Notes under the pieces: generated by a model
Seen by the model: the letters and a program-made list of their open reading frames with translations, nothing else
What the model was told of the DNA's origin: nothing
Database searches by the model: none
Program-made: the position numbers and the translations under genes
Part shown: positions 12,798 to 56,900 of the stretch, one piece after another
Layout: every line of letters starts with the position of its first letter
How positions within the stretch are numbered: position 1 is the stretch's first letter
Sequence record: MK327928.1
Length of the DNA: 64,000 nucleotides
Origin: Escherichia phage vB_EcoM_G2133
Direction: 5' to 3' (one strand)

Positions 12798-14216
12798 TTA
12801 TGGATAGGTATAGATGATACCAGTTTCTAAAGCAGTTTTATGAATGATGTATCCATTACGCGATTCTTGAACATCAACTTCTGGATAGTCTTTCATCATC
12901 TTCTGAAGAGTGTAACGATGCAGGTAGTATTTACTATCTGGATCTTCAGTTTTCCAATCTTTACCTTCTTCAGTCATTTTTTGGATTTCATCCATAACCC
13001 ACCAACCGCACCAGATATAAGCTGAGCTACGATGTGGAAGAGGATGAACATAAGGTAATTCACCTTCTGGTTCCGGAGCAACTTTATCAGTCACTTGAAC
13101 TTGACCTGTGGCTTTAACTGTTTTACTATCATAGTCAGTTGCTGTAACGACAGCAGTAACTTCAATAGTTTGACTTCCAACAGATGAGGTATCAACAGTA
13201 TATACGTTAGTTGACCCTTCCACAGGAGAAGAATCTTTCTTCCATGAGTAAGTAATTTGTGCTGCTTCAGGTGCGCCATTAACATTAGCAGTAAATGTAG
13301 CCGAAGCATCTTGCTGAACATTAATAGAAGGAGGAGTCAATGTAACCTGTGGATTCATTGTCTTCTTATTAACTGTCAATGATACTTCATTGGAAGTAAC
13401 TTCCTTTTCATTATAATTTTCTGCAGTTACTTGGGCTACGCATTTAATTCTTTTTACTCCACTTGTAGTTGGAGTATAGTTAAATGTAGAGTTAGTTTCT
13501 CCACCAACTTGTGAATCATCTACATACCACTGATACGTAGCAGACGCTCCGTCAGGTTGAGAAGCTAATGCAGCAGTAAATTGAACCGGGGTTCCAATTA
13601 CTCCAGCAGCAGGACTAGCAGGAGTTACTGCCAAGGTAGTTGTCTGTGTCTTTTTATTAACTGTCAATGATACTTCATTGGAAGTAACGCTCAGTGCATC
13701 ATAATCTGTCGCAGTTACTTGAGCTACACACTTAATTTTTTTAACTCCGCTTGTAGTAGGAGTATAATTGAATGTAGCAGAAGTTGCTTCGCTCACAGGA
13801 GAACCGTCAACGTACCATTGATACGTAGCAGATGCGCCCGATGGCTGTGAAGCTAAGGCAGCAGTAAATTCAACGGCTGTTCCGATTACTCCTTCTGGAG
13901 GACTATTAGGAGTTACAGCTAAGGTAGTTGTTTGTGTCTTATTTTGAACTGTGATAGTTGTACTAATTTCAGCTGTTTCAGCTTCAGAATCAGGAATAGT
14001 ATTTGTTGCAACTACCTTAATAGTCTTTTGACCAGCAGGTCCTTTTAATACATAATCAAAAGTTGCTGCTGATCCTTCTTGGGGAGCATTATCTACGCTC
14101 CAAGCATAGGTAATAGTTCCACCTCCAGTTTCACCACTGGGTGTAGCAGTAAACTGCTTGGTTTCATCAATAACCCCTGTTGGTGTTTTAGGAGTTATAT
14201 CAACTGTAAAAGCCAT
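12798..14216 (-). CDS. hoc: outer capsid decoration protein Hoc with four Ig-like domains
   Basis: 472 aa; repeated Ig-like modules (…TYQWYVD…FNYTPTTSGVK.IKCVAQVTA…); C-terminal Trp-rich capsid-binding region; synteny. T4 Hoc as recalled is 376 aa. Confidence 0.85.
   Translation of the reverse strand: MAFTVDITPKTPTGVIDETKQFTATPSGETGGGTITYAWSVDNAPQEGSAATFDYVLKGPAGQKTIKVVATNTIPDSEAETAEISTTITVQNKTQTTTLAVTPNSPPEGVIGTAVEFTAALASQPSGASATYQWYVDGSPVSEATSATFNYTPTTSGVKKIKCVAQVTATDYDALSVTSNEVSLTVNKKTQTTTLAVTPASPAAGVIGTPVQFTAALASQPDGASATYQWYVDDSQVGGETNSTFNYTPTTSGVKRIKCVAQVTAENYNEKEVTSNEVSLTVNKKTMNPQVTLTPPSINVQQDASATFTANVNGAPEAAQITYSWKKDSSPVEGSTNVYTVDTSSVGSQTIEVTAVVTATDYDSKTVKATGQVQVTDKVAPEPEGELPYVHPLPHRSSAYIWCGWWVMDEIQKMTEEGKDWKTEDPDSKYYLHRYTLQKMMKDYPEVDVQESRNGYIIHKTALETGIIYTYP
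13371..13943 (-). repeat. tandem duplication (2 x ~288 bp) encoding Hoc Ig-like domains 2 and 3
   Basis: two adjacent ~95-aa units about 79% identical at protein level (hand alignment); DNA repeats visible, e.g. TTATTAACTGTCAATGATACTTCATTGGAAGTAAC at ~13367 and ~13655. Confidence 0.8.
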
Positions 14217-25610: not shown

Positions 25611-25614
25611 CAAT

Positions 25615-25632
25615 GGGGACCTTTCGGTCCCC
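25615..25632. terminator. bidirectional terminator between convergent gene 54 and minus-strand alt block
   Basis: GGGGACC-tttc-GGTCCCC hairpin followed by T-rich run. Confidence 0.65.
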
Positions 25633-25638
25633 ATATTT

Positions 25639-25929
25639 TTATTTACGGAATGAAATAAAAGCAGCAACTGAAGCAACTAAACTGTCTTCAATATAAACCT
25701 CAATTTTTACCGGAGCTTCTGACTCAAATTTACCTGTTACTACACCTTGGAAAATACTTTCAGTCTGTTCTGGCTTTGAAAAATTTTCAGAAGGAAAAAT
25801 TCCGAACTTTTTATCTGTTCCAAAAATTTTGATAAATTCATCGTAAACTGCTTCATTAAAAGCATTATCAGCAGGAATAACGCCTTCAACTACAAGTTCT
25901 TGACCTAAAAAGCGCAAAGAAGATTTCAT
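25639..25929 (-). CDS. hypothetical protein, early-promoter driven
   Basis: 96 aa ORF with SD GAGG; preceded by a sigma70-like early promoter (repeat copy 1). Confidence 0.6.
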   Translation of the reverse strand: MKSSLRFLGQELVVEGVIPADNAFNEAVYDEFIKIFGTDKKFGIFPSENFSKPEQTESIFQGVVTGKFESEAPVKIEVYIEDSLVASVAAFISFRK

Positions 25930-25960
25930 TTTGTGTTCCTCATGTTATGCCAGTAAGACT

Positions 25961-25990
25961 ACTATAACACAACACGAGGGACTTGTAAAC
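25961..25990 (-). promoter_or_regulatory. T4 early-type promoter (-35 GTTTAC, 18-nt spacer, -10 TATAGT), copy 1 of 53-bp cassette 25938..25990
   Basis: -35 box overlaps alt-paralog stop codon; 51 of 53 nt identical with 41127..41179. Confidence 0.5.
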
Positions 25991-28047
25991 TACATTTTGA
26001 ACTTTTTAGACATTCCGTTGATGTTAACCAAAGAAGCCAAGATTTGAGAAACTTCGTTTTCCTCTTCTTTTGATTCTTCTACAAGGAATTGATTAAATCC
26101 AGCCATTGGACGAACTTCACCAGTTTCCATTAGATGGTCGCCATCATATACCGATTCCTCTAATTGTTCAGAAGGAGGAACGATTGTACCTTCTATTAGA
26201 TACTTGTTATAAGCAGTTTCTTTCATAAAGTACGTACTTACTTTATTAATCTTCAGTAAAATTCCGCGCGGTAGAATAACTTCAGCTTCTGATGGAAATC
26301 CTGATAAATGACCTGGAACGATAACTTTGATTCGCTCAGCTCCTTTAATTACCATACCCACGCTAGTTTCAGCATCTTCATTAGCATATGTAGAATGACT
26401 ACCCATATGCATCAAATCTTCTGCATCAACGGAACCTTCTCCTTCACCAGAAAATACTGCGCCGGAATCATCTAGAGCCATATAGTTTTTACCATGCTCA
26501 CCGAAGATATTTGGTTTAAGCGATGTGGATACGAAGTTCTTGAAATAGAACATTTTATTTTCAATGTTATGACGCAAAGTTTTAAAGGTAACTTCTTGCC
26601 CACGATAAAGAGTAGTTCCTGGAGGAAGAACAGAACCTTTAGCAAATGCAGAATCCAACGTCTCGATGTGTTTAATAGCTCGTTCCATATATTCTTCACG
26701 GGTAGAATCAGGTTTACCTAAAAGGAACGAGTTCATTTCAACATATGAATCTGCACAATAATCTTCAATTACATCAGATTCAGCTTGAGTTAATCCTTTT
26801 GGAGTTACTTCGGTGCTTGCGTATTCATATGCCTGAGCGGCAGATTCATTAATCAATTTATAAATGCCATTCATTACAAATTGAATAATAGCTGTCTTTT
26901 CATCTGGCGTAGCTTTAGAACCTTTAACCAAATCATTGATAATTTTCTTAATAACATCAAAGCTATTAGAAATATTAATGTCAGCAAGATCGCTTAAAAT
27001 TTTATCAGTTTTATAATCAAAGAATTCTTTATTCTTTAAATATTCTTGAGAACCTTGATATGTTATATCGCTCTGCAACTTGATAGATGGATCACGTAAA
27101 CGTGCATGGGCTAATGCAATATGATTTCGGAAGTTTTCTAGTTCGTAATCGCTAGATTTAAAACGAGAAGCACTTCTCATACCACCAATAGCTCCTTTGC
27201 TGAAGTTTGAACCAATCTGAATAACGCCAGAGTTCATTGGTCCTTCTGCTTTATACACCGGAACTTTAAATTCAAACTCTTGATATTTCTTAGCAGCGAA
27301 GCTATCACCCTGAAGTGAAGCATCGACAGTAGAATATTGAGCTTGTGCTGCTAATCGACGACTAATTTTAGTTTTCTGAATAACAGCTTGATCAGTGCGC
27401 TTATCATTTTCTAAAGCAATAGAAGCAGCAACAGCGACAGCTTTAGGAACAGCATTACCTGTTTTAACGTCTACATAAACATCACCAACCTTTGATTCAA
27501 CTTTTGTGAATAACTCAGTTGAAATAGGAGGTACACCTGGAATGTCTTCTAAATTGGCATTTTTACGGTAAACCATAATATATGCATATTTCTTATCAAA
27601 GTCCCAGATTTCCTTTAAAAGAACATATCGACCTGCTCCTTTAGTACGTACTAAACGGTCAGCAATAACTTGCATTTGACGAGCAGCGCCATTTGTTTTA
27701 CTCTTTAGTACGCGAAATAAGCATGCATCAATTTTATACTGTTTCATTGTTTGAAGAGCAGTATCAAAAACAGCATTAATGACGCCAATTGGATTTCCAC
27801 CCAAGTTTTTAAGCTTAACTAACGATAATTTCTCGTTGACACCTATCATTACGATATGCATCATTTTATCGCCTGGCTTAACGTTTTTATTCGTATCACC
27901 GCCAGAGGTGTATGTACAAAATCTAAATCCAGGAAGCACGCTTTCTTCACCGGCTTGAATAGCAAAAATTTGTGGTATTTTATGCTTAGGATTTAAGTTA
28001 ACAACCGGCGCCGAAGCGCCGTCAAATAATTCTGTAATAAGTTCCAT
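25990..28047 (-). CDS. Alt-like ADP-ribosyltransferase paralog (full length)
   Basis: 685 aa; N-terminal ~190 aa highly similar to adjacent alt; ART motifs Y-R482-GQ, S507-T-S, E587-A-E589; start 3 nt after alt stop. Confidence 0.85.
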   Translation of the reverse strand: MELITELFDGASAPVVNLNPKHKIPQIFAIQAGEESVLPGFRFCTYTSGGDTNKNVKPGDKMMHIVMIGVNEKLSLVKLKNLGGNPIGVINAVFDTALQTMKQYKIDACLFRVLKSKTNGAARQMQVIADRLVRTKGAGRYVLLKEIWDFDKKYAYIMVYRKNANLEDIPGVPPISTELFTKVESKVGDVYVDVKTGNAVPKAVAVAASIALENDKRTDQAVIQKTKISRRLAAQAQYSTVDASLQGDSFAAKKYQEFEFKVPVYKAEGPMNSGVIQIGSNFSKGAIGGMRSASRFKSSDYELENFRNHIALAHARLRDPSIKLQSDITYQGSQEYLKNKEFFDYKTDKILSDLADINISNSFDVIKKIINDLVKGSKATPDEKTAIIQFVMNGIYKLINESAAQAYEYASTEVTPKGLTQAESDVIEDYCADSYVEMNSFLLGKPDSTREEYMERAIKHIETLDSAFAKGSVLPPGTTLYRGQEVTFKTLRHNIENKMFYFKNFVSTSLKPNIFGEHGKNYMALDDSGAVFSGEGEGSVDAEDLMHMGSHSTYANEDAETSVGMVIKGAERIKVIVPGHLSGFPSEAEVILPRGILLKINKVSTYFMKETAYNKYLIEGTIVPPSEQLEESVYDGDHLMETGEVRPMAGFNQFLVEESKEEENEVSQILASLVNINGMSKKFKM

Positions 28048-28050
28048 GAT

Positions 28051-30144
28051 TTATCCTTGAACGAACTTGTAAGGCATGTTTGTAATATCTATGCAAGACG
28101 CAATAATTCCAAGAGATGATTCTACTTTCTGTTTAACGTTTGATGAAACAAATGATGCAAAGTCAACTCTGTCTTCTATTTCAATATCACCTGTCATTGC
28201 AACCAATTCACCAGTTTCCATTAAATGGTCTCCATCATAGATTACCGATTCGGTGAGCTCTTCCGTGGTCATAACTTCAGCTTGAATGAGTTTTGTATTA
28301 TTAGATGTTGTTCCGTCATTATTAGAAGCATCAGTTATTTTATTAACTTTGACCATCAATCCACGCGGTAGAATAACTTCAGCTTCTGTTGCTATTCCGA
28401 GACTTCCTGGATATACAACATTAACTTTATGAGCTCCATCAATTGCCCATCCTATTTGAACTTTAACGTATTCAGGATTTTCTTTATACGCTCTTATTTC
28501 GTTTGGATTAATAGTTATTCCTTCTTCATTTTTATCAACTGTTAATTCATTGCGAGCTTCTGGTTCTAAAAGACCAATACCAGCATGTGTAATTCCAAAA
28601 CGTCCAAAAATGATAGGAGTTAAAGAAGTAGATACAAAATTTCTGAAGTAGAACACTTTATTTTTAACTAACGCTTCATATATAGGAGCAGTCATACTTT
28701 GAGCACGATAAACTGTAATGCCTTCTGGTATACGGTCACCATTTTCAAAAGCTGAATCTAAGTTATTTATAGCAGATTCAATTTCTTTTTCACTCATTAC
28801 ATCATATCGTTCTGGATTGTAACGACCTAAAAGAAGATTATTGATGTCAGTATATCCTGAACCGCAATATTCTCTAATGCCACGCTTTTGTGATGGAGTA
28901 TATTTAGAACCATCGCGGGCAATAGTAATATCAATCATTGGACCAGCACCAATTCCAGAAAAACTGTAAATCATTCGTTTGAGGAATTTAGTTTTTGCTG
29001 CGTTCCAGGAATTTTTAGTTATTTCTTCCCAGACTTCATCTGGTTGTCCTTTACGATTTTTATTATGATTAGCAAGCCATTTATCTTTATAATCTTCAAA
29101 GAATTGATTTACAGCTGCTGCGTATTTCTCTAAACATTTTATTGAAGTAGTTGGTTCATTTTTAATTGCATTAAAAATTACTTCTTTAATTTTTTCTGAA
29201 ACTTCACCGACTTGACTCATTGGAAAGAATTTATAATCATAGTGAAGTTCATCTGCCGTTCCTTCAGCAATAATTTTTGCTGCCTTTGTTTTAGAAGCTA
29301 ATGAATTAATTCCAATTTTCATTTCTTCTGCTTCGGGAATTAAAGGAGCGGTAGCAGGTTTATTGAAATTAGCTGCGGTAGATTCATACTTCTGGAATAA
29401 TTCACTTTCAAATCTAGAAGATTCCAACGACTGACTTTGCGCAATTGCTCTACGTGAAATTTTAACTTTAACGATTACCGCTTGGTCAGAACGTTTATCA
29501 TTTTCTTGCGCAATAGATGCTGCAATTGCCTCATTTTTAGTTACTTGGGCTCCAGTATCTTTATTGATATAAACATCACCGACTTTCGATTCAACTTTAG
29601 TAAAGAGCTCGGTACTAATTTCCGGAACTCCTGGAATGTCTTCTAATGATACATTTTTGCGATGTATAAGAATATATGCATACTTTTTATCATAATCCCA
29701 GAGTTCCTTAAGAAGGACGTATCTGCCACCTGAACGACTACGGATAAGTCTATCAGCAATAAGTTGAATTTGACGAGCTTGACCAGCAGTTTTAGACTTA
29801 AGAATACGGAGCATACATGCATCAATTTTATACTGACGCATCGTCTGCATCGCAACAGTAAAAACTGAATTGATGTAATTAATTGGGCTTGGACCGAGAC
29901 CCTTTAATTTAGCAATTGAACCTTTAGCAGTTAATGTAAAAGGAACAATATGCATCATTTTATCGCCCATTTTTAAATCGCGATTAGTATCACCTCCAGA
30001 TGTATAGGTACATAAACGAAAACCTGGTTGTTCAATTGCGTCATCAACATGAACTGAAAAAATTTGCGGTATTTTCTTCTTTGGATTTAAGTTTGTAATC
30101 GGAAGAGTAGTATCTTCGTCAAATAATTCTGTAATGAGTTCCAT
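28051..30144 (-). CDS. alt: Alt ADP-ribosyltransferase (capsid-packaged)
   Basis: track ORF 28051..30147 begins MM, second Met used; MELITELFDEDTTLPITNL...; R-S-E ART motifs (YRAQ, STS, EAEVILPRG). Confidence 0.88.
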   Translation of the reverse strand: MELITELFDEDTTLPITNLNPKKKIPQIFSVHVDDAIEQPGFRLCTYTSGGDTNRDLKMGDKMMHIVPFTLTAKGSIAKLKGLGPSPINYINSVFTVAMQTMRQYKIDACMLRILKSKTAGQARQIQLIADRLIRSRSGGRYVLLKELWDYDKKYAYILIHRKNVSLEDIPGVPEISTELFTKVESKVGDVYINKDTGAQVTKNEAIAASIAQENDKRSDQAVIVKVKISRRAIAQSQSLESSRFESELFQKYESTAANFNKPATAPLIPEAEEMKIGINSLASKTKAAKIIAEGTADELHYDYKFFPMSQVGEVSEKIKEVIFNAIKNEPTTSIKCLEKYAAAVNQFFEDYKDKWLANHNKNRKGQPDEVWEEITKNSWNAAKTKFLKRMIYSFSGIGAGPMIDITIARDGSKYTPSQKRGIREYCGSGYTDINNLLLGRYNPERYDVMSEKEIESAINNLDSAFENGDRIPEGITVYRAQSMTAPIYEALVKNKVFYFRNFVSTSLTPIIFGRFGITHAGIGLLEPEARNELTVDKNEEGITINPNEIRAYKENPEYVKVQIGWAIDGAHKVNVVYPGSLGIATEAEVILPRGLMVKVNKITDASNNDGTTSNNTKLIQAEVMTTEELTESVIYDGDHLMETGELVAMTGDIEIEDRVDFASFVSSNVKQKVESSLGIIASCIDITNMPYKFVQG

Positions 30145-30167
30145 CATATCCTCTCTAGTGTTTATTC

Positions 30168-30175
30168 TATTTATA
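30168..30175 (-). promoter_or_regulatory. late promoter box TATAAATA for alt
   Basis: reverse complement of TATTTATA about 20 nt upstream of alt ATG, after hairpin 30181..30198. Confidence 0.55.
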
Positions 30176-34140: not shown

Positions 34141-34506
34141 TTAAATATCAAATTCGTTAAGAACTACATCAAAGATTGCTTCAAGATGCTCAGGTTTAGC
34201 TCTGTTACTCAAAATATGACGAATCCAAGTTTTAACCAGAAGCTTACGATTGACGCCATTCCAGCAAGGATGAGTCCCTAAATCACGTTGACGAAAATCA
34301 TCATCCAGAGCGATTTTAAAGTTGGAACCTTCCATTGTGATTGAAACCGTGATGCCATTTTCAAATCGCATATAAACGTAATTAGGAGTCATATACTGTT
34401 CAATTTCGCATACTGATCCATTTTGATGTTTCCAAAGGCAAATAGTATCAATAGAACCTGCAATACCATTAGAAACATATTTACGTTCAAAGTTGATGTA
34501 GTTCAT
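34141..34506 (-). CDS. hypothetical protein (position 30.7)
   Basis: 121 aa, ATG start. Confidence 0.6.
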   Translation of the reverse strand: MNYINFERKYVSNGIAGSIDTICLWKHQNGSVCEIEQYMTPNYVYMRFENGITVSITMEGSNFKIALDDDFRQRDLGTHPCWNGVNRKLLVKTWIRHILSNRAKPEHLEAIFDVVLNEFDI

Positions 34507-34543
34507 TTTTGTTCTCCGAGATGTTTAATTGCGGTACAGGTAT

Positions 34544-34572
34544 ATAATATCATATCCTGTACCAAAGTAAAC
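34544..34572 (-). promoter_or_regulatory. T4 early-type promoter (-35 GTTTAC, 17 nt, -10 TATTAT)
   Basis: consensus hexamers about 40 nt upstream of ATG 34506; overlaps a GTACAGG/CCTGTAC inverted repeat. Confidence 0.45.
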
Positions 34573-34574
34573 AA

Positions 34575-34907
34575 TTATTTTACTACTTTCCAATGCTGCA
34601 TGTCAAGTTTACCAACTTTTTTCATCTTCTCAATTAAGCGTTCGGCACGTTGGCGAGCTGTAACATAATGCCATTCGCCTAATTCATTTTGTTCAATTTT
34701 TCCAACGATTACTGTATTCAATTCATAAATCCAACCAGTAAAGAAATTATGAACTTGAATTGTAAAGGTGAAATCTGTTCCCATACCTTCTGTTGTTTCT
34801 ACTTCAATAATATCACCTTCAACTGCCATTAAGAACCACATAGTTTCATCATATTTACCATTGAAGCATTTAGTTTTAACTGCAGCGTTCAGATTAATCG
34901 TTTTCAT
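34575..34907 (-). CDS. hypothetical protein (position 30.8)
   Basis: 110 aa, ATG start. Confidence 0.6.
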   Translation of the reverse strand: MKTINLNAAVKTKCFNGKYDETMWFLMAVEGDIIEVETTEGMGTDFTFTIQVHNFFTGWIYELNTVIVGKIEQNELGEWHYVTARQRAERLIEKMKKVGKLDMQHWKVVK

Positions 34908-34984
34908 TTTATTCTCCTTTGTTTGTGTAAGATAATACTATCACAAAGGAACCATACTGTAAACAACTTTGTGCAATCTTTGGA

Positions 34985-37563: not shown

Positions 37564-37799
37564 AGTACGCCATACACCCTTTGTGCTTCAACTAATCCAT
37601 CAAAATCCAGTTTAAGATGCGATATTTGATCGCCATCGCCTGGATTCACAATTACTAATACTGAACGAGGAGTTTCGGTAATAACACGAACCGATGTTTC
37701 AGGAAATCGTTCAGAAACCTTATTTACCAATTCCTGAGCAAATAGTTTAACTTTTTCTTGGAATTCTTTAACAGTAATTGGTTTTTCACTTAGCAGCAT
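37560..37799 (-). CDS. hypothetical protein (position cd.2)
   Basis: track ORF to 37895 starts at TTG; ATG 37799 (MLLSEKPITVKEF...) with GAGG SD and its own early promoter. Confidence 0.55.
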   Translation of the reverse strand: MLLSEKPITVKEFQEKVKLFAQELVNKVSERFPETSVRVITETPRSVLVIVNPGDGDQISHLKLDFDGLVEAQRVYGVL

Positions 37800-37828
37800 T
37801 TTGTTTTCCTCATTTGTTTGGTAGAGCC

Positions 37829-37858
37829 ATAATATCACAACTCTACCGTAAAGTAAAC
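37829..37858 (-). promoter_or_regulatory. T4 early-type promoter (-35 GTTTAC, 18 nt, -10 TATTAT)
   Basis: between cd.3 stop and cd.2 ATG. Confidence 0.45.
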
Positions 37859-37860
37859 TA

Positions 37861-38136
37861 TTAAATCGCTTTGAATTCCGCAGTTTGAGATTCAAAGCGA
37901 ATGTCGCCTTTGATAACTAGCTCAGCATCAAGACCAAATACGACAATGATATGCGCGGAACCTGGATACAGCGTAATGGCAACAGAATCCACCTGGTCTG
38001 GAAGCAAAGTGTTTAATACATGAGTCACTTGAGCATGGATTCGAAGCTCAGCTGCGTTATCAAGTTTTTCAAACATATTATTAGCGATAATTTGGCTAAA
38101 CACTACTTCTACGATTTTAGAATAAGTCGGAAACAT
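37861..38136 (-). CDS. hypothetical protein (position cd.3)
   Basis: track start 38166 is TTG; ATG 38136 preceded by GAGG, directly after cd.4 stop. Confidence 0.55.
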   Translation of the reverse strand: MFPTYSKIVEVVFSQIIANNMFEKLDNAAELRIHAQVTHVLNTLLPDQVDSVAITLYPGSAHIIVVFGLDAELVIKGDIRFESQTAEFKAI

Positions 38137-40274: not shown

Positions 40275-40624
40275 TTAGAAAGGTCCTGGATGTCTTCTGC
40301 GAACTTGTTGAAGGAGTTGTTAATTTGTTTTTCAACCAATCCTGGCTTATGAGCCACCACATCCGCCTTCTTTGCATCTTTGCGCAGTTTTTCATTTTCA
40401 CGCTCAATAGCAGCAATTGCCTCACGATTTTTATTATTCATCGCATCAATATAATTATACTGAATTCGCAAATTATTTAATGCTAAGGCGTTTTCATTGG
40501 CCGTTTTTGTAATTTCAGTAACTGATGTTTCTAATCTTTCTACCTTATTTTTTAAAATAATAGATGTTCCGCCAAATGCTATTACAAGTAATAGCAATCC
40601 AGCTGTAAAATTACTTACATGCAT
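40271..40624 (-). CDS. pseT.3: inner-membrane spanin (i-spanin, Rz-like)
   Basis: 117 aa; N-terminal TM helix FTAGLLLLVIAFGGTSIIL then coiled-coil-like region; adjacent to lipoprotein partner. Confidence 0.7.
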   Translation of the reverse strand: MHVSNFTAGLLLLVIAFGGTSIILKNKVERLETSVTEITKTANENALALNNLRIQYNYIDAMNNKNREAIAAIERENEKLRKDAKKADVVAHKPGLVEKQINNSFNKFAEDIQDLSK

Positions 40625-41118
40625 AAAGTTTTAATAACCTCTATAATATCGTCTTGAGAAAGACCGTTAATTAAAATATGATGTTCAGCTGGAGATTTAG
40701 AAATTTTAAAGCATGCCTCAACATCTTCTGCCATATCCGATGCACTACGATTTGGATTACTAATTCCAAGACGATGCTTTCCAGTCAAAGGATTAACGAT
40801 GATATAGCATTTACAACTATTGATATGAACATTAGGTTGAGTCTGATTAATAAATACATCACAATCATATTTCGCAAGCTGATTTTCTAAAAAGACTTTC
40901 ATCTCTTCAACCGCATCAGGAAGCATATCACGGGCTTGCTCAAGACGACGATTTCGATATTCTTTAATGGTCGTTTTCCGCTTGACTTGCTTAGCTAAAT
41001 CTTTCTTAAGATCGGTGATATATCCAACTCGACGGTTTCCTTTAAATACAGAAATCCCATCTGTAGTATCACCGTATGCTTCAACGACCATTTCAGTAGT
41101 AATTAGCTGCAAATCCAT
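40615..41118 (-). CDS. alc: Alc host-transcription inhibitor
   Basis: 167 aa from second Met, MDLQLITTEMVVEAYGDTTDG; synteny between spanins and rnlA. Confidence 0.75.
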   Translation of the reverse strand: MDLQLITTEMVVEAYGDTTDGISVFKGNRRVGYITDLKKDLAKQVKRKTTIKEYRNRRLEQARDMLPDAVEEMKVFLENQLAKYDCDVFINQTQPNVHINSCKCYIIVNPLTGKHRLGISNPNRSASDMAEDVEACFKISKSPAEHHILINGLSQDDIIEVIKTLCM

Positions 41119-41149
41119 CATAAAGTCCTCATGTTATGTTAGTAAGACT

Positions 41150-41179
41150 ACTATAACACAACACGAGGGACTTGTAAAC
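41150..41179 (-). promoter_or_regulatory. T4 early-type promoter, copy 2 of 53-bp cassette 41127..41179
   Basis: 51 of 53 nt identical to 25938..25990 including -35 GTTTAC, -10 TATAGT and SD; drives alc. Confidence 0.5.
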
Positions 41180-53959: not shown

Positions 53960-56900
53960 ATGGCCGAGATTAAAAGAAAGTTCAGAGCAGAAGATGGTCT
54001 GGACGCAGGTGGTGATAAAATAATCAACGTAGCTTTAGCTGATCGTGCCGTAGGAACTGACGGCGTTAACGTTGATTACTTAATTCAAGAAAACACAGTT
54101 CAACAATATGATCCAACTCGTGGATATTTAAAAGATTTTGTAATCATTTATGATAACCGCTTTTGGGCTGCTATAAATGATATTCCAAAACCAGCAGGAG
54201 CTTTTAATAGCGTACGATGGAGAGCGTTACGTACTGATGCAAACTGGACAACTGTTTCATCAGGACCTTATCAATTAAAATCGGGCGAATCAATTTCAGT
54301 TGATACTGCAGCGGGTAATGACATTACATTTACTTTGCCATCTTCTCCAATTGATGGTGATACTATCGTTCTCCAAGATATTGGAGGAAAACCTGGAGTT
54401 AACCAGGTTTTAATTACAGCTCCGGTACAAAGCATTGTAAATTTTAGAGGTCAGCAAGTACGTTCAGTACTAATGACTCATCCAAAATCACAGATAGTTT
54501 TAATTTTTAGTAATCGTCTGTGGCAAATGTATGTCGCTGATTATAGTAGAGAAGCTGTAGTTGTAACGCCTGCGAGTCTCTATCAGGCGCAATCAAACGA
54601 TTTTATCGTACGTAGATTTACTTCTGCTTCAGCAATTAATATTAAACTTCCAAGATTTGCCAATCATGGCGATATTATTAATTTCGTTGATTTAGATAAA
54701 CTGAATCCACTTTATCATACAATTGTTACTACATACGATGAAACGACTTCAGTACAAGAAGTTGGAACTCATTCCATTGAAGGTCGTACATCGATTGACG
54801 GTTTCTTGATGTTTGATGATAATGAGAAATTGTGGAGATTGTTTGACGGGGATAGTAAAGCACGTTTACGCATTATAACAACTAATTCTAATATTCGTCC
54901 AAATGAAGAAGTTATGGTATTTGGTGCGAATAACGGAACAGCTCAGACAATTGAACTTCAGCTTCCGACTGATATTTCTGTTGGTGATACTGTTAAAATT
55001 TCCATGAATTACATGAGAAAAGGGCAAACAGTTAAAATCAAAGCTGCCGGTGAAGATAAAATTGCTTCTTCGGTTCAATTGTTGCAATTCCCAAAACGCT
55101 CAGAATATCCGCCTGAAGCTGAATGGGTAACAGTTCAAGAATTAGTTTTTAATGGTGAAACTAATTATGTACCAGTTTTGCAACTTGCTTATATTGAAGA
55201 TTCTGATGGAAAATACTGGGTTGTACAGCAAAATGTTCCAACCGTAGAAAGAGTAGATTCTTTAAATGATTCTACTAGAGCAAGATTAGGCGTAATTGCT
55301 TTAGCTACACAAGCTCAAGCTAATGTCGATTTAGAAAATTCTCCTCAAAAAGAATTAGCAATTACTCCAGAAACGTTAGCTAATCGTACTGCTACAGAAA
55401 CTCGTAGAGGTATTGCAAGAATAGCAACTACTGCTCAAGTGAATCAGAACACCACATTCTCTTTTGCAGATGACCTTATCATTACTCCTAAAAAGCTGAA
55501 TGAAAGAACTGCTACAGAAACTCGTAGAGGTGTCGCAGAAATTGCTACGCAGCAAGAAACTAATACAGGTACTGATGATACTACAATCATTACTCCTAAA
55601 AAGCTTCAAGCTCGTCAAGGTTCTGAATCATTATCTGGTATTGTAACCTTTGTATCTACTGCAGGAGCTACTCCAGCTTCTAGCCGTGAATTAAATGGTA
55701 CGAATGTTTATAATAAAAACACTAATAATTTAGTTGTTTCGCCTAAAGCTCTGGATCAGTATAAAGCTACTCCAACGCAACAAGGTGCAGTAATTTTAGC
55801 AGTTGAAAGTGAAGTAATTGCTGGACAAAGTCAGGAAGGATGGGCAAATGCGGTTGTAACGCCAGAAACGTTACATAAAAAGACATCAACTGATGGAAGA
55901 ATTGGTTTAATTGAAATTGCTACGCAAAGTGAAGTTAATACAGGAACTGACTATACACGTGCAGTCACTCCTAAAACTTTAAATGACCGTAGAGCAACTG
56001 AAAGTTTAAGTGGTATAGCTGAAATTGCGACACAAGTTGAATTCGACGCAGGCGTCGACGATACTCGTATCTCTACACCATTAAAAATTAAAACCAGATT
56101 TAATAGTACTGATCGTACTTCTGTTGTTGCTCTATCTGGATTAGTTGAATCAGGAACTCTCTGGGACCATTATACCCTTAATATTCTTGAAGCAAATGAG
56201 ACACAACGTGGTACACTTCGTGTAGCTACACAGGTTGAAGCTGCTGCAGGAACATTAGATAATGTTTTAATAACTCCTAAAAAGCTTTTAGGTACTAAAT
56301 CTACCGAATCGCAAGAAGGTGTTATTAAAGTTGCAACTCAGTCTGAAACTGTGACTGGAACGTCAGCAAATACTGCTGTATCTCCAAAAAATTTAAAATG
56401 GATTGTGCAGAGTGAACCTACTTGGGCAGCAACTACTGCGATAAGAGGTTTTGTTAAAACTTCATCTGGTTCAATTACATTCGTTGGTAATGATACAGTC
56501 GGTTCTACTCAAGATTTAGAACTGTATGAGAAAAATAGCTATGCGGTATCACCATATGAATTAAACCGTGTATTAGCAAATTATTTACCGTTAAAAGCAA
56601 AAGCTGCTGATACAAATTTATTGGATGGTCTAGATTCATCTCAGTTCATTCGTAGGGACATTGCGCAGACAGTTAATGGTTCACTAACCTTAACCCAACA
56701 AACGAATCTGAGTGCCCCTCTTGTATCATCTAGTACTGCTACGTTTGGTGGTTCAGTTTCGGCAAATAGTACATTAACTATTTCTAATACTGGAACTGCA
56801 ACTCGTCTGATTTTTGAGAAAGGACCTCAAACTGGAACTAACCCAGCACAGACGATGACTATTAGAGTTTGGGGAAATCAGTTTGGCGGCGGTTCAGATA

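Follow-up and report, generated by a model that had tools for sequence, protein, structure and literature searches.

A duplicated early promoter cassette upstream of alc and alt.-3 in Escherichia phage vB_EcoM_G2133 and the RNA hairpin predicted within it

Two intergenic gaps in the genome of Escherichia phage vB_EcoM_G2133 (sequence record MK327928.1), 15.2 kb apart, contain nearly the same sequence in direct orientation. One lies directly upstream of alt.-3 and the other directly upstream of alc. The analysis covered a stretch of 64,000 nucleotides of this genome (the window). An earlier interpretation made from the letters and open reading frames of the window (the sequence-only reading) had taken the two sites as a duplicated early promoter with its leader, and had proposed that they co-regulate the two genes or serve as a recombination substrate. 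The question raised by the locus is why the two sites agree well beyond a promoter consensus. The shared identity is explained by a predicted hairpin of the sense strand, which is conserved and includes the downstream gene's ribosome binding site. We consider it probable (roughly 0.6) that this hairpin acts as a gate around the promoter, which would limit the translation of Alc and Alt.-3 to the early transcripts of their own promoters. The repeat, the promoter motifs, the fold prediction, the covariation, and the distribution across genera were established here; the start sites, the translational block, and the route of copying are proposals.

The two cassette copies and the predicted hairpin

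The minus-strand segments 25990..25937 (copy A, in the gap between alt.-2 and alt.-3) and 41179..41126 (copy B, in the gap between rnlA and alc) were aligned as a 54-nt direct repeat in which 52/54 positions are the same. The identity of 51/53 that had been counted by hand was exact for the 53 nt then considered, and the alignment extends it by one position. The copies differ only at cassette positions 40–41 (GG versus AA), and they share uninterrupted identity runs of 39 and 13 nt. The 39-nt core (GTTTAC...TTACT) is exact in both copies. It has no third site in the window at up to three mismatches, and no match was found in 100 dinucleotide-preserving shuffles. The edges of the identity are sharp, at the G of GTTTAC on the upstream side and after GAGGA on the downstream side, and the flanks are unrelated. 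Each copy takes up the space between its two neighbouring genes, running from the G of the −35 element through the Shine-Dalgarno sequence GAGGA, and the stop codon TAG of alt.-2 (25992-25990, minus strand) overlaps the first base of copy A.

Both copies have the anatomy of a T4 early promoter (Pe). The −35 element GTTTAC is located on the minus strand at 25985..25990 in copy A and at 41174..41179 in copy B, and the longer match GTTTACA (25990-25984 and 41179-41173) agrees with the −35 sequence of the Pe class. A consensus scan found TTTACA, a 17-bp spacer, and a TATAGT hexamer preceded by TG in both copies, again as in the Pe class. The extended −10 elements, TGT followed by TATAGT, are located at 25961..25969 and 41150..41158. 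The predicted start sites, inferred from the spacing, are the A residues 7 nt past the hexamer, at 25954 in copy A and 41143 in copy B. Transcripts starting there would have a leader of 25 nt, with GAGG(A) 5–8 nt ahead of the ATG. Upstream of the −35 element, the flank is A-rich in copy A (CTAAAAAGTTCAAAATGTA) and less A-rich in copy B (CCCAGAAGGATACTAAGCT); in both copies the flank belongs to the 3' end of the coding sequence upstream. Copy A serves alt.-3 (25639..25929, minus strand, 96 amino acids; Pfam DUF5498, E 1e-64), and copy B serves alc (40615..41118, minus strand, 167 amino acids; Pfam PF17527, E 4e-92). The consensus scan and the Pfam matches agree with the proposal of an early-type promoter and a Shine-Dalgarno sequence directly upstream of these two genes. 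Both sites are predicted early promoters in the annotation of fPS-65, and the alt.-3 site is a promoter in the annotation of Lutter.

The cassettes and the T4 early promoters (Hinton 2010, PMC2988021) are alike in GTTTAC, the 17-bp spacer, TGn, TAnnnT, and the placement directly before early genes, and the class consensus accounts for just about 15 of the cassettes' 54 common positions. The two cassettes are 96% identical over 54 nt. From the −35 element to the ATG, the alc and alt.-3 pair is 91% identical, compared with 55–72% between unrelated T-even early-promoter cassettes. The cassette is a duplicated module of a T4 early-type promoter and its leader, as had been claimed, and not a chance resemblance.

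The identity outside the consensus forms an inverted repeat. The spacer sequence CCUCGUGUUGUGU (cassette positions 12–24) pairs with the leader sequence (A/G)CAUAACAUGAGG (positions 41–53), and a 5-bp inner stem flanks the predicted start site. In copy A, the 5' arm (CCUCGUGUUGUGU, 25967..25979) is located in the promoter spacer and has the anti-Shine-Dalgarno motif CCUC, and the 3' arm (GCAUAACAUGAGG, 25938..25950) ends in the Shine-Dalgarno sequence GAGG at 25941-25938. The corresponding arms of copy B are at 41156..41168 and 41127..41139 (3' arm, ACAUAACAUGAGG), with GAGG at 41130-41127; all four arms are given on the minus strand. The −10 hexamer is placed in the hairpin loop, and the predicted +1 (cassette position 37) falls between the two arms. 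The GG versus AA difference between the copies turns U·G pairs into U-A pairs, and the pairing is kept.

The folding calculations separate RNA that passes through the promoter from RNA that starts at it. An 81-nt read-through RNA including the upstream flank folds at −23.0 kcal/mol (z −3.8) for copy A and −27.4 kcal/mol (z −4.4) for copy B, and 0/200 shuffles reach so stable a fold. No significant structure is predicted for RNA whose 5' end is near the predicted +1. The unpaired probability of the Shine-Dalgarno sequence is a poor gauge because of weak local pairings in short RNA; the opening energy was used instead. In the read-through RNA, opening the ribosome binding site (−15 to +4) is predicted to cost 17.7 kcal/mol (copy A) and 20.2 kcal/mol (copy B), compared with 3.3 and 4.0 kcal/mol in the primary transcripts. 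The reverse complement scores 23 bits, versus 87 bits for the sense strand, in the covariance model described below. The fold is specific to the sense strand because of its G·U pairs, and the folded species would most simply be the mRNA. Rfam contained no family matching the window at gathering thresholds, and the cassette region gave only noise.

These features suggest how a gate could operate. The 5' arm would be the promoter spacer with its CCUC, the loop would hold the −10 hexamer and the predicted start, and the 3' arm would be the leader ending in the Shine-Dalgarno sequence. RNA arriving from upstream would have both arms, namely the late alt/alt.-2 message at alt.-3 and the nrd-denA-rnlA messages at alc. 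Such read-through RNA would fold, and its ribosome binding site would be hidden. RNA from the embedded promoter would start between the arms, and without the 5' arm its ribosome binding site would be open. On this proposal, synthesis of Alc and Alt.-3 would be limited to the immediate-early transcripts of their own promoters, and read-through RNA made later would yield neither protein.

The surroundings of copy A provide a candidate for the late RNA. A late-promoter motif (TATAAATA, 30168..30175, minus strand) is located just upstream of alt, and it is likely the source of late read-through RNA across alt, alt.-2, and copy A into alt.-3. No terminator-like site was found on the minus strand between 30168 and 25634 in our scan; therefore, a late alt message would have to cross copy A into alt.-3. 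The transcription unit of alt.-3 is ended by a bidirectional terminator-like hairpin (25613..25634) between alt.-3 and gene 54. In the published time-resolved transcriptome and proteome of T4, alc and alt.-3 are early at both the RNA and the protein level, alt is late, alt.-1 and alt.-2 are middle, and rnlA has early RNA and late protein. The proposal of early-only translation agrees with the early protein profiles of alc and alt.-3. Co-regulation of the two genes, as put forward in the sequence-only reading, is plausible because both are early as RNA and protein, in contrast to the middle or late genes upstream of them.

T4 does not require alt.-3, and mutants in which read-through lengthens the C-terminus of its product evade the CmdTAC toxin-antitoxin-chaperone defence (Nature 2024, PMC11618068). 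In the window, the alt.-3 stop codon is only a few bases from the bidirectional terminator at 25613-25634.

Distribution among relatives and probable origin of the alt.-3 copy

The window belongs to Tequatrovirus: a 2-kb comparison with PhiZZ30 gave 98.9% identity, and the window is collinear with RB32 (about 96–97%). A search of other T4-like genomes had been suggested. A BLAST search with the cassette gave 502 phage records and at least 1000 places, and two copies are present in each record among the matches listed, including T4 and T2. With both copies in about 500 records, the cassette pair is a fixed feature of the genus and is therefore not peculiar to this genome. In 14 Tequatrovirus genomes, the alc and alt.-3 cassettes have one common consensus with no fixed difference. 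The divergence between orthologous cassettes is 2.7% at alc and 5.6% at alt.-3, and the rest of these genomes is 94–99% identical. Arm variants in the 14 genomes are mostly pairing-neutral (C-G to U·G and G·U to A-U), and one genome has the compensatory double change C15U with G50A. The two copies of a genome do not resemble each other significantly more than copies taken from different genomes do (2.21 versus 2.47 differences, permutation P = 0.12); therefore, ongoing exchange or gene conversion is not evident. IMG/VR provided just 5–6 loci per gene, which are too few for a population analysis.

The regions upstream of alc were compared from ten other genera or lineages. In six of the ten (Gelderlandvirus, Jiaodavirus, Dhakavirus, Karamvirus, Kanagawavirus, and Winklervirus), the full design is present upstream of alc, with the spacer of a GTTTAC promoter pairing with a leader that bears the Shine-Dalgarno sequence. 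The arms of these six differ in sequence, for example AUCUCCGUUUAGUU with AACUAAACGGAGAU and UCCUCAUUUCGUU with AACGAAAUGAGGA. The predicted opening cost in these genera is 9–16 kcal/mol for the read-through RNA, compared with 1–4 kcal/mol for the primary transcript. A CCUC, CUCC, or CCCC motif in the spacer is positioned to pair with the Shine-Dalgarno sequence in 8/10 alc-type cassettes.

A covariance model (R1) was built from 15 Tequatrovirus variants only. In the window it scores high at the two copies only (85.1 bits, E 4e-17, at copy A; 86.7 bits, E 2e-17, at copy B), and each of the six cross-genus sites is the top match of its locus, with E values from 6e-5 to 0.2. In a structural alignment fitted to the structure of the model, 12/18 pairs have changes on both sides and 92% of the cells are paired. 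When the 3' arms were swapped between lineages as a control, 65% were paired on average, with a maximum of 79%. The helix is thus backed by covariation between genera. Plain MAFFT alignment followed by RNAalifold mis-registered the cross-genus cassettes (consensus −1.75 kcal/mol), and the covariance-model alignment was used instead. In Gaprivervirus VR7, an extra open reading frame of 77 amino acids, annotated as Alc-like, is located between rnlA and alc (locus positions 396-690). A weak match to the cassette model (E ~1) was observed directly before this open reading frame and not before alc.

The early promoters of alt.-3 in Dhakavirus, Mosigvirus, Gaprivervirus, and Marfavirus occupy the same gap with a CACCACAAGGATGTGG-like spacer and are without the anti-Shine-Dalgarno arm; their opening costs differ by just 1.7–4 kcal/mol. 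The alt.-3 promoters of those four genera and the Tequatrovirus sequence have an upstream flank (TTCAAAATGTAGTTTACAA) and a Shine-Dalgarno region (ACATGAGGA) in common. Because six other genera have the layout at alc while the alt.-3 promoters of other genera are without it, alc is probably the ancestral site of the cassette, from which alt.-3 received its copy in Tequatrovirus. As to the copying route, we infer that the inner part of the native alt.-3 promoter gave way to the alc cassette in the Tequatrovirus ancestor. The exchange was probably a short recombination patch, bounded by motifs that are common to all of these promoters (GTTTACAA and AACATGAGGA). The near-identity of the two sites would follow from this replacement.

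A reciprocal swap in Mosigvirus, in which alc would have taken the alt.-3 promoter (77–78% identity), was also considered. This candidate was weakened because the CCACAAGGATGTGG-type core is also present at unrelated T2 promoters and so marks a family of generic promoters. Near-identical early-promoter cores of a second family (GTTTAC...CCACAAGGATGTGGTA...) were observed at T2 2458 and 47334 and at alt.-3 or alc of Dhakavirus, Marfavirus, and Mosigvirus. The alc promoter of Mosigvirus is a member of the CCACAAGGATGTGGTA core family and is not of the hairpin type. It seems that early promoters fall into a small number of sequence families that are used repeatedly.

Movement of early promoters between loci has a precedent in the PeSL cassettes of RB49/phi1, PST/T4, and nt-1/KVP40 (Arbiol 2010, PMC2839356; Comeau 2014, PMC4122927). 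PeSLs resemble the present cassettes in being repeated units of intergenic gaps in which a strong early promoter is combined with a stem-loop and with a Shine-Dalgarno sequence, and in that they can be swapped between loci by recombination in the conserved motifs of the promoter and the Shine-Dalgarno sequence. Their crossovers map between the −10 element and the Shine-Dalgarno sequence or the ATG, which is the same kind of event as the proposed transplant from alc to alt.-3. However, the stem-loop of a PeSL is located upstream of the promoter and is a terminator or attenuator, whereas the stem predicted here encloses the −10 element, ends in the Shine-Dalgarno sequence, and has no U-tract. 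The DNA upstream of the −35 element is coding in both copies and contains no stem-loop. Moreover, PeSLs cluster in hyperplastic regions beside dispensable open reading frames and go along with indels between close relatives, whereas the present copies are 15.2 kb apart across genes 30 and 31 and are both kept in every record among the matches listed.

The proposed gate and competing explanations

Several observations weigh against the proposed gate. In Tegunavirus and in Providencia phage PSTCR6, the alc hairpin around the −10 element ends short of the Shine-Dalgarno sequence, and the opening-cost differences are 1.4 and −1.1 kcal/mol, respectively. The alc promoter of Mosigvirus is without a hairpin altogether. 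Covariation within Tequatrovirus could not be told apart statistically from that in shuffles, the variation being too sparse to inform. The cross-genus alignment leans towards the model structure to which it was fitted, and more weight belongs to the arm-swap control. The stop codon of alt.-2 is 9 nt before the 5' arm, and terminating ribosomes could open the outermost pairs. There is also no evident reason to keep Alc, the terminator of host transcription, or Alt.-3 from later synthesis. Finally, the hairpins at two other early promoters of the window, 37858 and 34572, are off the Shine-Dalgarno sequence; the hairpins may therefore have a general purpose, to which the occlusion of the ribosome binding site is an add-on.

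The last point leads to an explanation in which the hairpin is real but has no role in translation. It would be a processing or stability element on the read-through RNA, or a pause site or attenuator by which the upstream unit is insulated, and the pairing of the Shine-Dalgarno sequence would be incidental. For example, once the A-rich leader is cleaved, the stem could protect the 3' end of the upstream message. Hairpins around the −10 element that fall short of the Shine-Dalgarno sequence are in line with such a role; they are predicted at 37858 (z −3.3) and 34572 (z −4.3) in the window, at alc of Tegunavirus (z −5.8), and in the Providencia phage (z −2.7). Complementarity between the spacer and its own leader is also general across the 18 early promoters surveyed below, as a feature not tied to ribosome binding sites. 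However, the placement of an anti-Shine-Dalgarno motif in 8/10 alc-type cassettes is hard to square with incidental pairing, and the opening-cost contrast of 14–16 kcal/mol is of the size expected of a translational block. We regard a purely non-translational role as unlikely. One form of it, an intrinsic terminator, is ruled out because there is no U-tract 3' of the stem at either copy, nor is there one in the other genera.

The copies could instead be chiefly a substrate for homologous recombination, by which the 15-kb interval is deleted, duplicated, or circularised, as for the PeSLs in RB49 and phi1. About 50 bp of homology is usable by T4 recombination, the repeated early promoter cassettes of RB49 and phi1 are documented to cross over and to give circular products, and the cassette evidently moved once, from alc to alt.-3. 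The sequence-only reading had named this possibility beside co-regulation and had regarded the interval as accessory early genes. That description does not hold. The interval contains alt.-2, alt, gene 30, 30.1-30.9, rIII, gene 31, cd, pseT, and pseT.1-.3, and gene 30 encodes DNA ligase and gene 31 the co-chaperonin.

T4 cannot do without genes 30 and 31, and gene 31 is also marked as essential in the annotation of RB32; loss of the interval by deletion between the repeats would therefore kill the phage. A 15-kb tandem duplication would be larger than the terminal redundancy of a headful, which in T4 amounts to a few percent. Both copies are kept in every record among the matches listed, and the copies within a genome are no closer than those between genomes, as given above. 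The PeSL precedents, in contrast, are neighbouring cassettes 0.4–1.4 kb apart beside dispensable open reading frames. A role of the pair as a deletion or duplication substrate is improbable.

The near-identity may also be thought a mere trace of a recent promoter duplication or conversion, in which the cassette works as a promoter and nothing more, with the hairpin as a by-product. The divergence of the cassettes within Tequatrovirus is similar to that of the rest of the genomes, so that conservation within the genus does not by itself show selection, and near-identical cores are present at other T-even early promoters (T2 2458 and T2 47334, both with CCACAAGGATGTGG). This explanation is decidedly improbable because the alc hairpin survives extensive sequence change in six genera, with compensatory substitutions. 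It is very improbable that the inverted repeat acts as DNA, either as a structure or as a protein site affecting initiation or early-promoter shut-off: the shut-off mechanism is described in the literature as not understood and inverted repeats centred on the −10 element recur at several early promoters, but the arm sequences vary between promoters and genera and offer no common protein site, the arms span about −26 to +17, well past the transcription bubble, and the specificity for one strand due to the G·U pairs argues against a cruciform.

Early promoters in predicted hairpins and known T4 devices

The proposed gate at alc and alt.-3 resembles a device already described in T4. In the genes e, soc, 49, and I-TevI, a hairpin hides the ribosome binding site, and a promoter is located between its arms (Uzan and Miller 2010, PMC3014915). 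The Shine-Dalgarno sequence and/or the AUG is in a helix on long transcripts, the proximal transcript is without the 5' arm and is translated, and the structure is kept among close relatives; the cassettes share these traits by prediction. However, the embedded promoter of these genes is a late one (TATAAATA), which delays translation until late infection, whereas the alc and alt.-3 cassettes have an early sigma-70 promoter whose own spacer would be the 5' arm, and their translation would be confined to the first minutes. The present case is best filed as a known T4 device that is used here with an early promoter and was spread to a second gene by transplantation of the cassette, and not as a recombination hotspot.

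Neither alc, alt.-3, nor any early-promoter case is among the examples in the review of T4 post-transcriptional control by Uzan and Miller (2010, PMC3014915). In our literature search, neither alc nor alt.-3 was described as having a hairpin, although the 2003 T4 genome review was outside its scope and an earlier mention is possible. The search also found no T4 transcription-start-site maps covering the two sites.

The complementarity between spacer and leader was surveyed at 19 predicted early promoters (T2 from 1 to 50 kb, and the window), 18 of them distinct after alt.-3 was left out as a duplicate of alc. The spacer pairs with its own leader at −8.3 kcal/mol, compared with −5.4 ± 0.5 kcal/mol for the leaders of other promoters (P < 5e-5, 18 promoters), and the own leader is the best partner of the spacer in 6/18. 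At window 34964 (34915-34964, minus strand) and at T2 24988, 16606, and 11828 (minus strand), the spacer or the upstream flank is predicted to pair with the Shine-Dalgarno sequence. The opening-cost differences at these four sites are 8.5, 15.4, 7.3, and 10.7 kcal/mol, respectively; contrasts of at least 7 kcal/mol are therefore predicted there besides both cassette copies.

Two further early-type promoters of the window (GTTTACT...TATTAT; 37795-37870 and 34500-34585, both minus strand) are also located in predicted hairpins (z −3.3 and −4.3). The loop is the −10 hexamer in both, the arms are GGUAGAG/CUCUACC and GGUACAGG/CCUGUACC, respectively, and the Shine-Dalgarno sequence is outside the stem.

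Judging from the folding, early promoters seem to be embedded in hairpins quite generally, perhaps for a purpose unrelated to gating, for instance RNA stability or processing. The recurrence of gating-size contrasts at the four sites above and the conserved placement of the anti-Shine-Dalgarno motif at alc speak against such a different purpose. More tentatively, T-even early promoters could commonly be promoter-in-hairpin switches, of which a sizeable subset has an anti-Shine-Dalgarno spacer and is translated only from its own transcript; this subset would consist of alc, alt.-3, window 34964, and T2 24988, 16606, and 11828. We think this extension possible but doubtful.

Other repeats were observed in the window. 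The genes alt and alt.-2 (25992-30146, minus strand) are full-length tandem paralogues with a repeat-family spacing of 2091–2097 nt, and the same holds in RB32 and T2. In T4, the second alt copy has decayed to the short open reading frames alt.-1 and alt.-2, and the cassette copies are therefore about 13.3 kb apart there. A 288-nt tandem repeat of two copies with 79% identity is located at 13359-13934, in the region equivalent to hoc of RB32, and presumably represents Ig-like domains of Hoc. At 55361-56286 (plus strand), one long coding region contains families of 30–68-nt repeats that are 65–80% identical and spaced by 108–681 nt; its product looks like a repetitive structural protein of the tail-fibre type.

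T4 is the reference system for timed phage gene expression. The hairpin-gated ribosome binding sites catalogued so far in T4 are late-promoter cases only (e, soc, 49, and homing endonucleases), and an early promoter whose spacer is the anti-Shine-Dalgarno arm would show the same device working in the opposite temporal direction. Such a gate would explain how Alc and Alt.-3 are strictly early despite later read-through messages, Alt.-3 being carried on the late alt mRNA. The cassette pair is, in addition, a concrete and datable case of a regulatory cassette that was moved between genes within a phage genome. If the extension to T-even early promoters in general were true, cassettes would be exchanged between loci as units, and a previously unlisted, genome-wide layer of temporal control would mirror the hairpins of the late genes. 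Part of the rapid fall in early-protein synthesis would then be explained without promoter shut-off.

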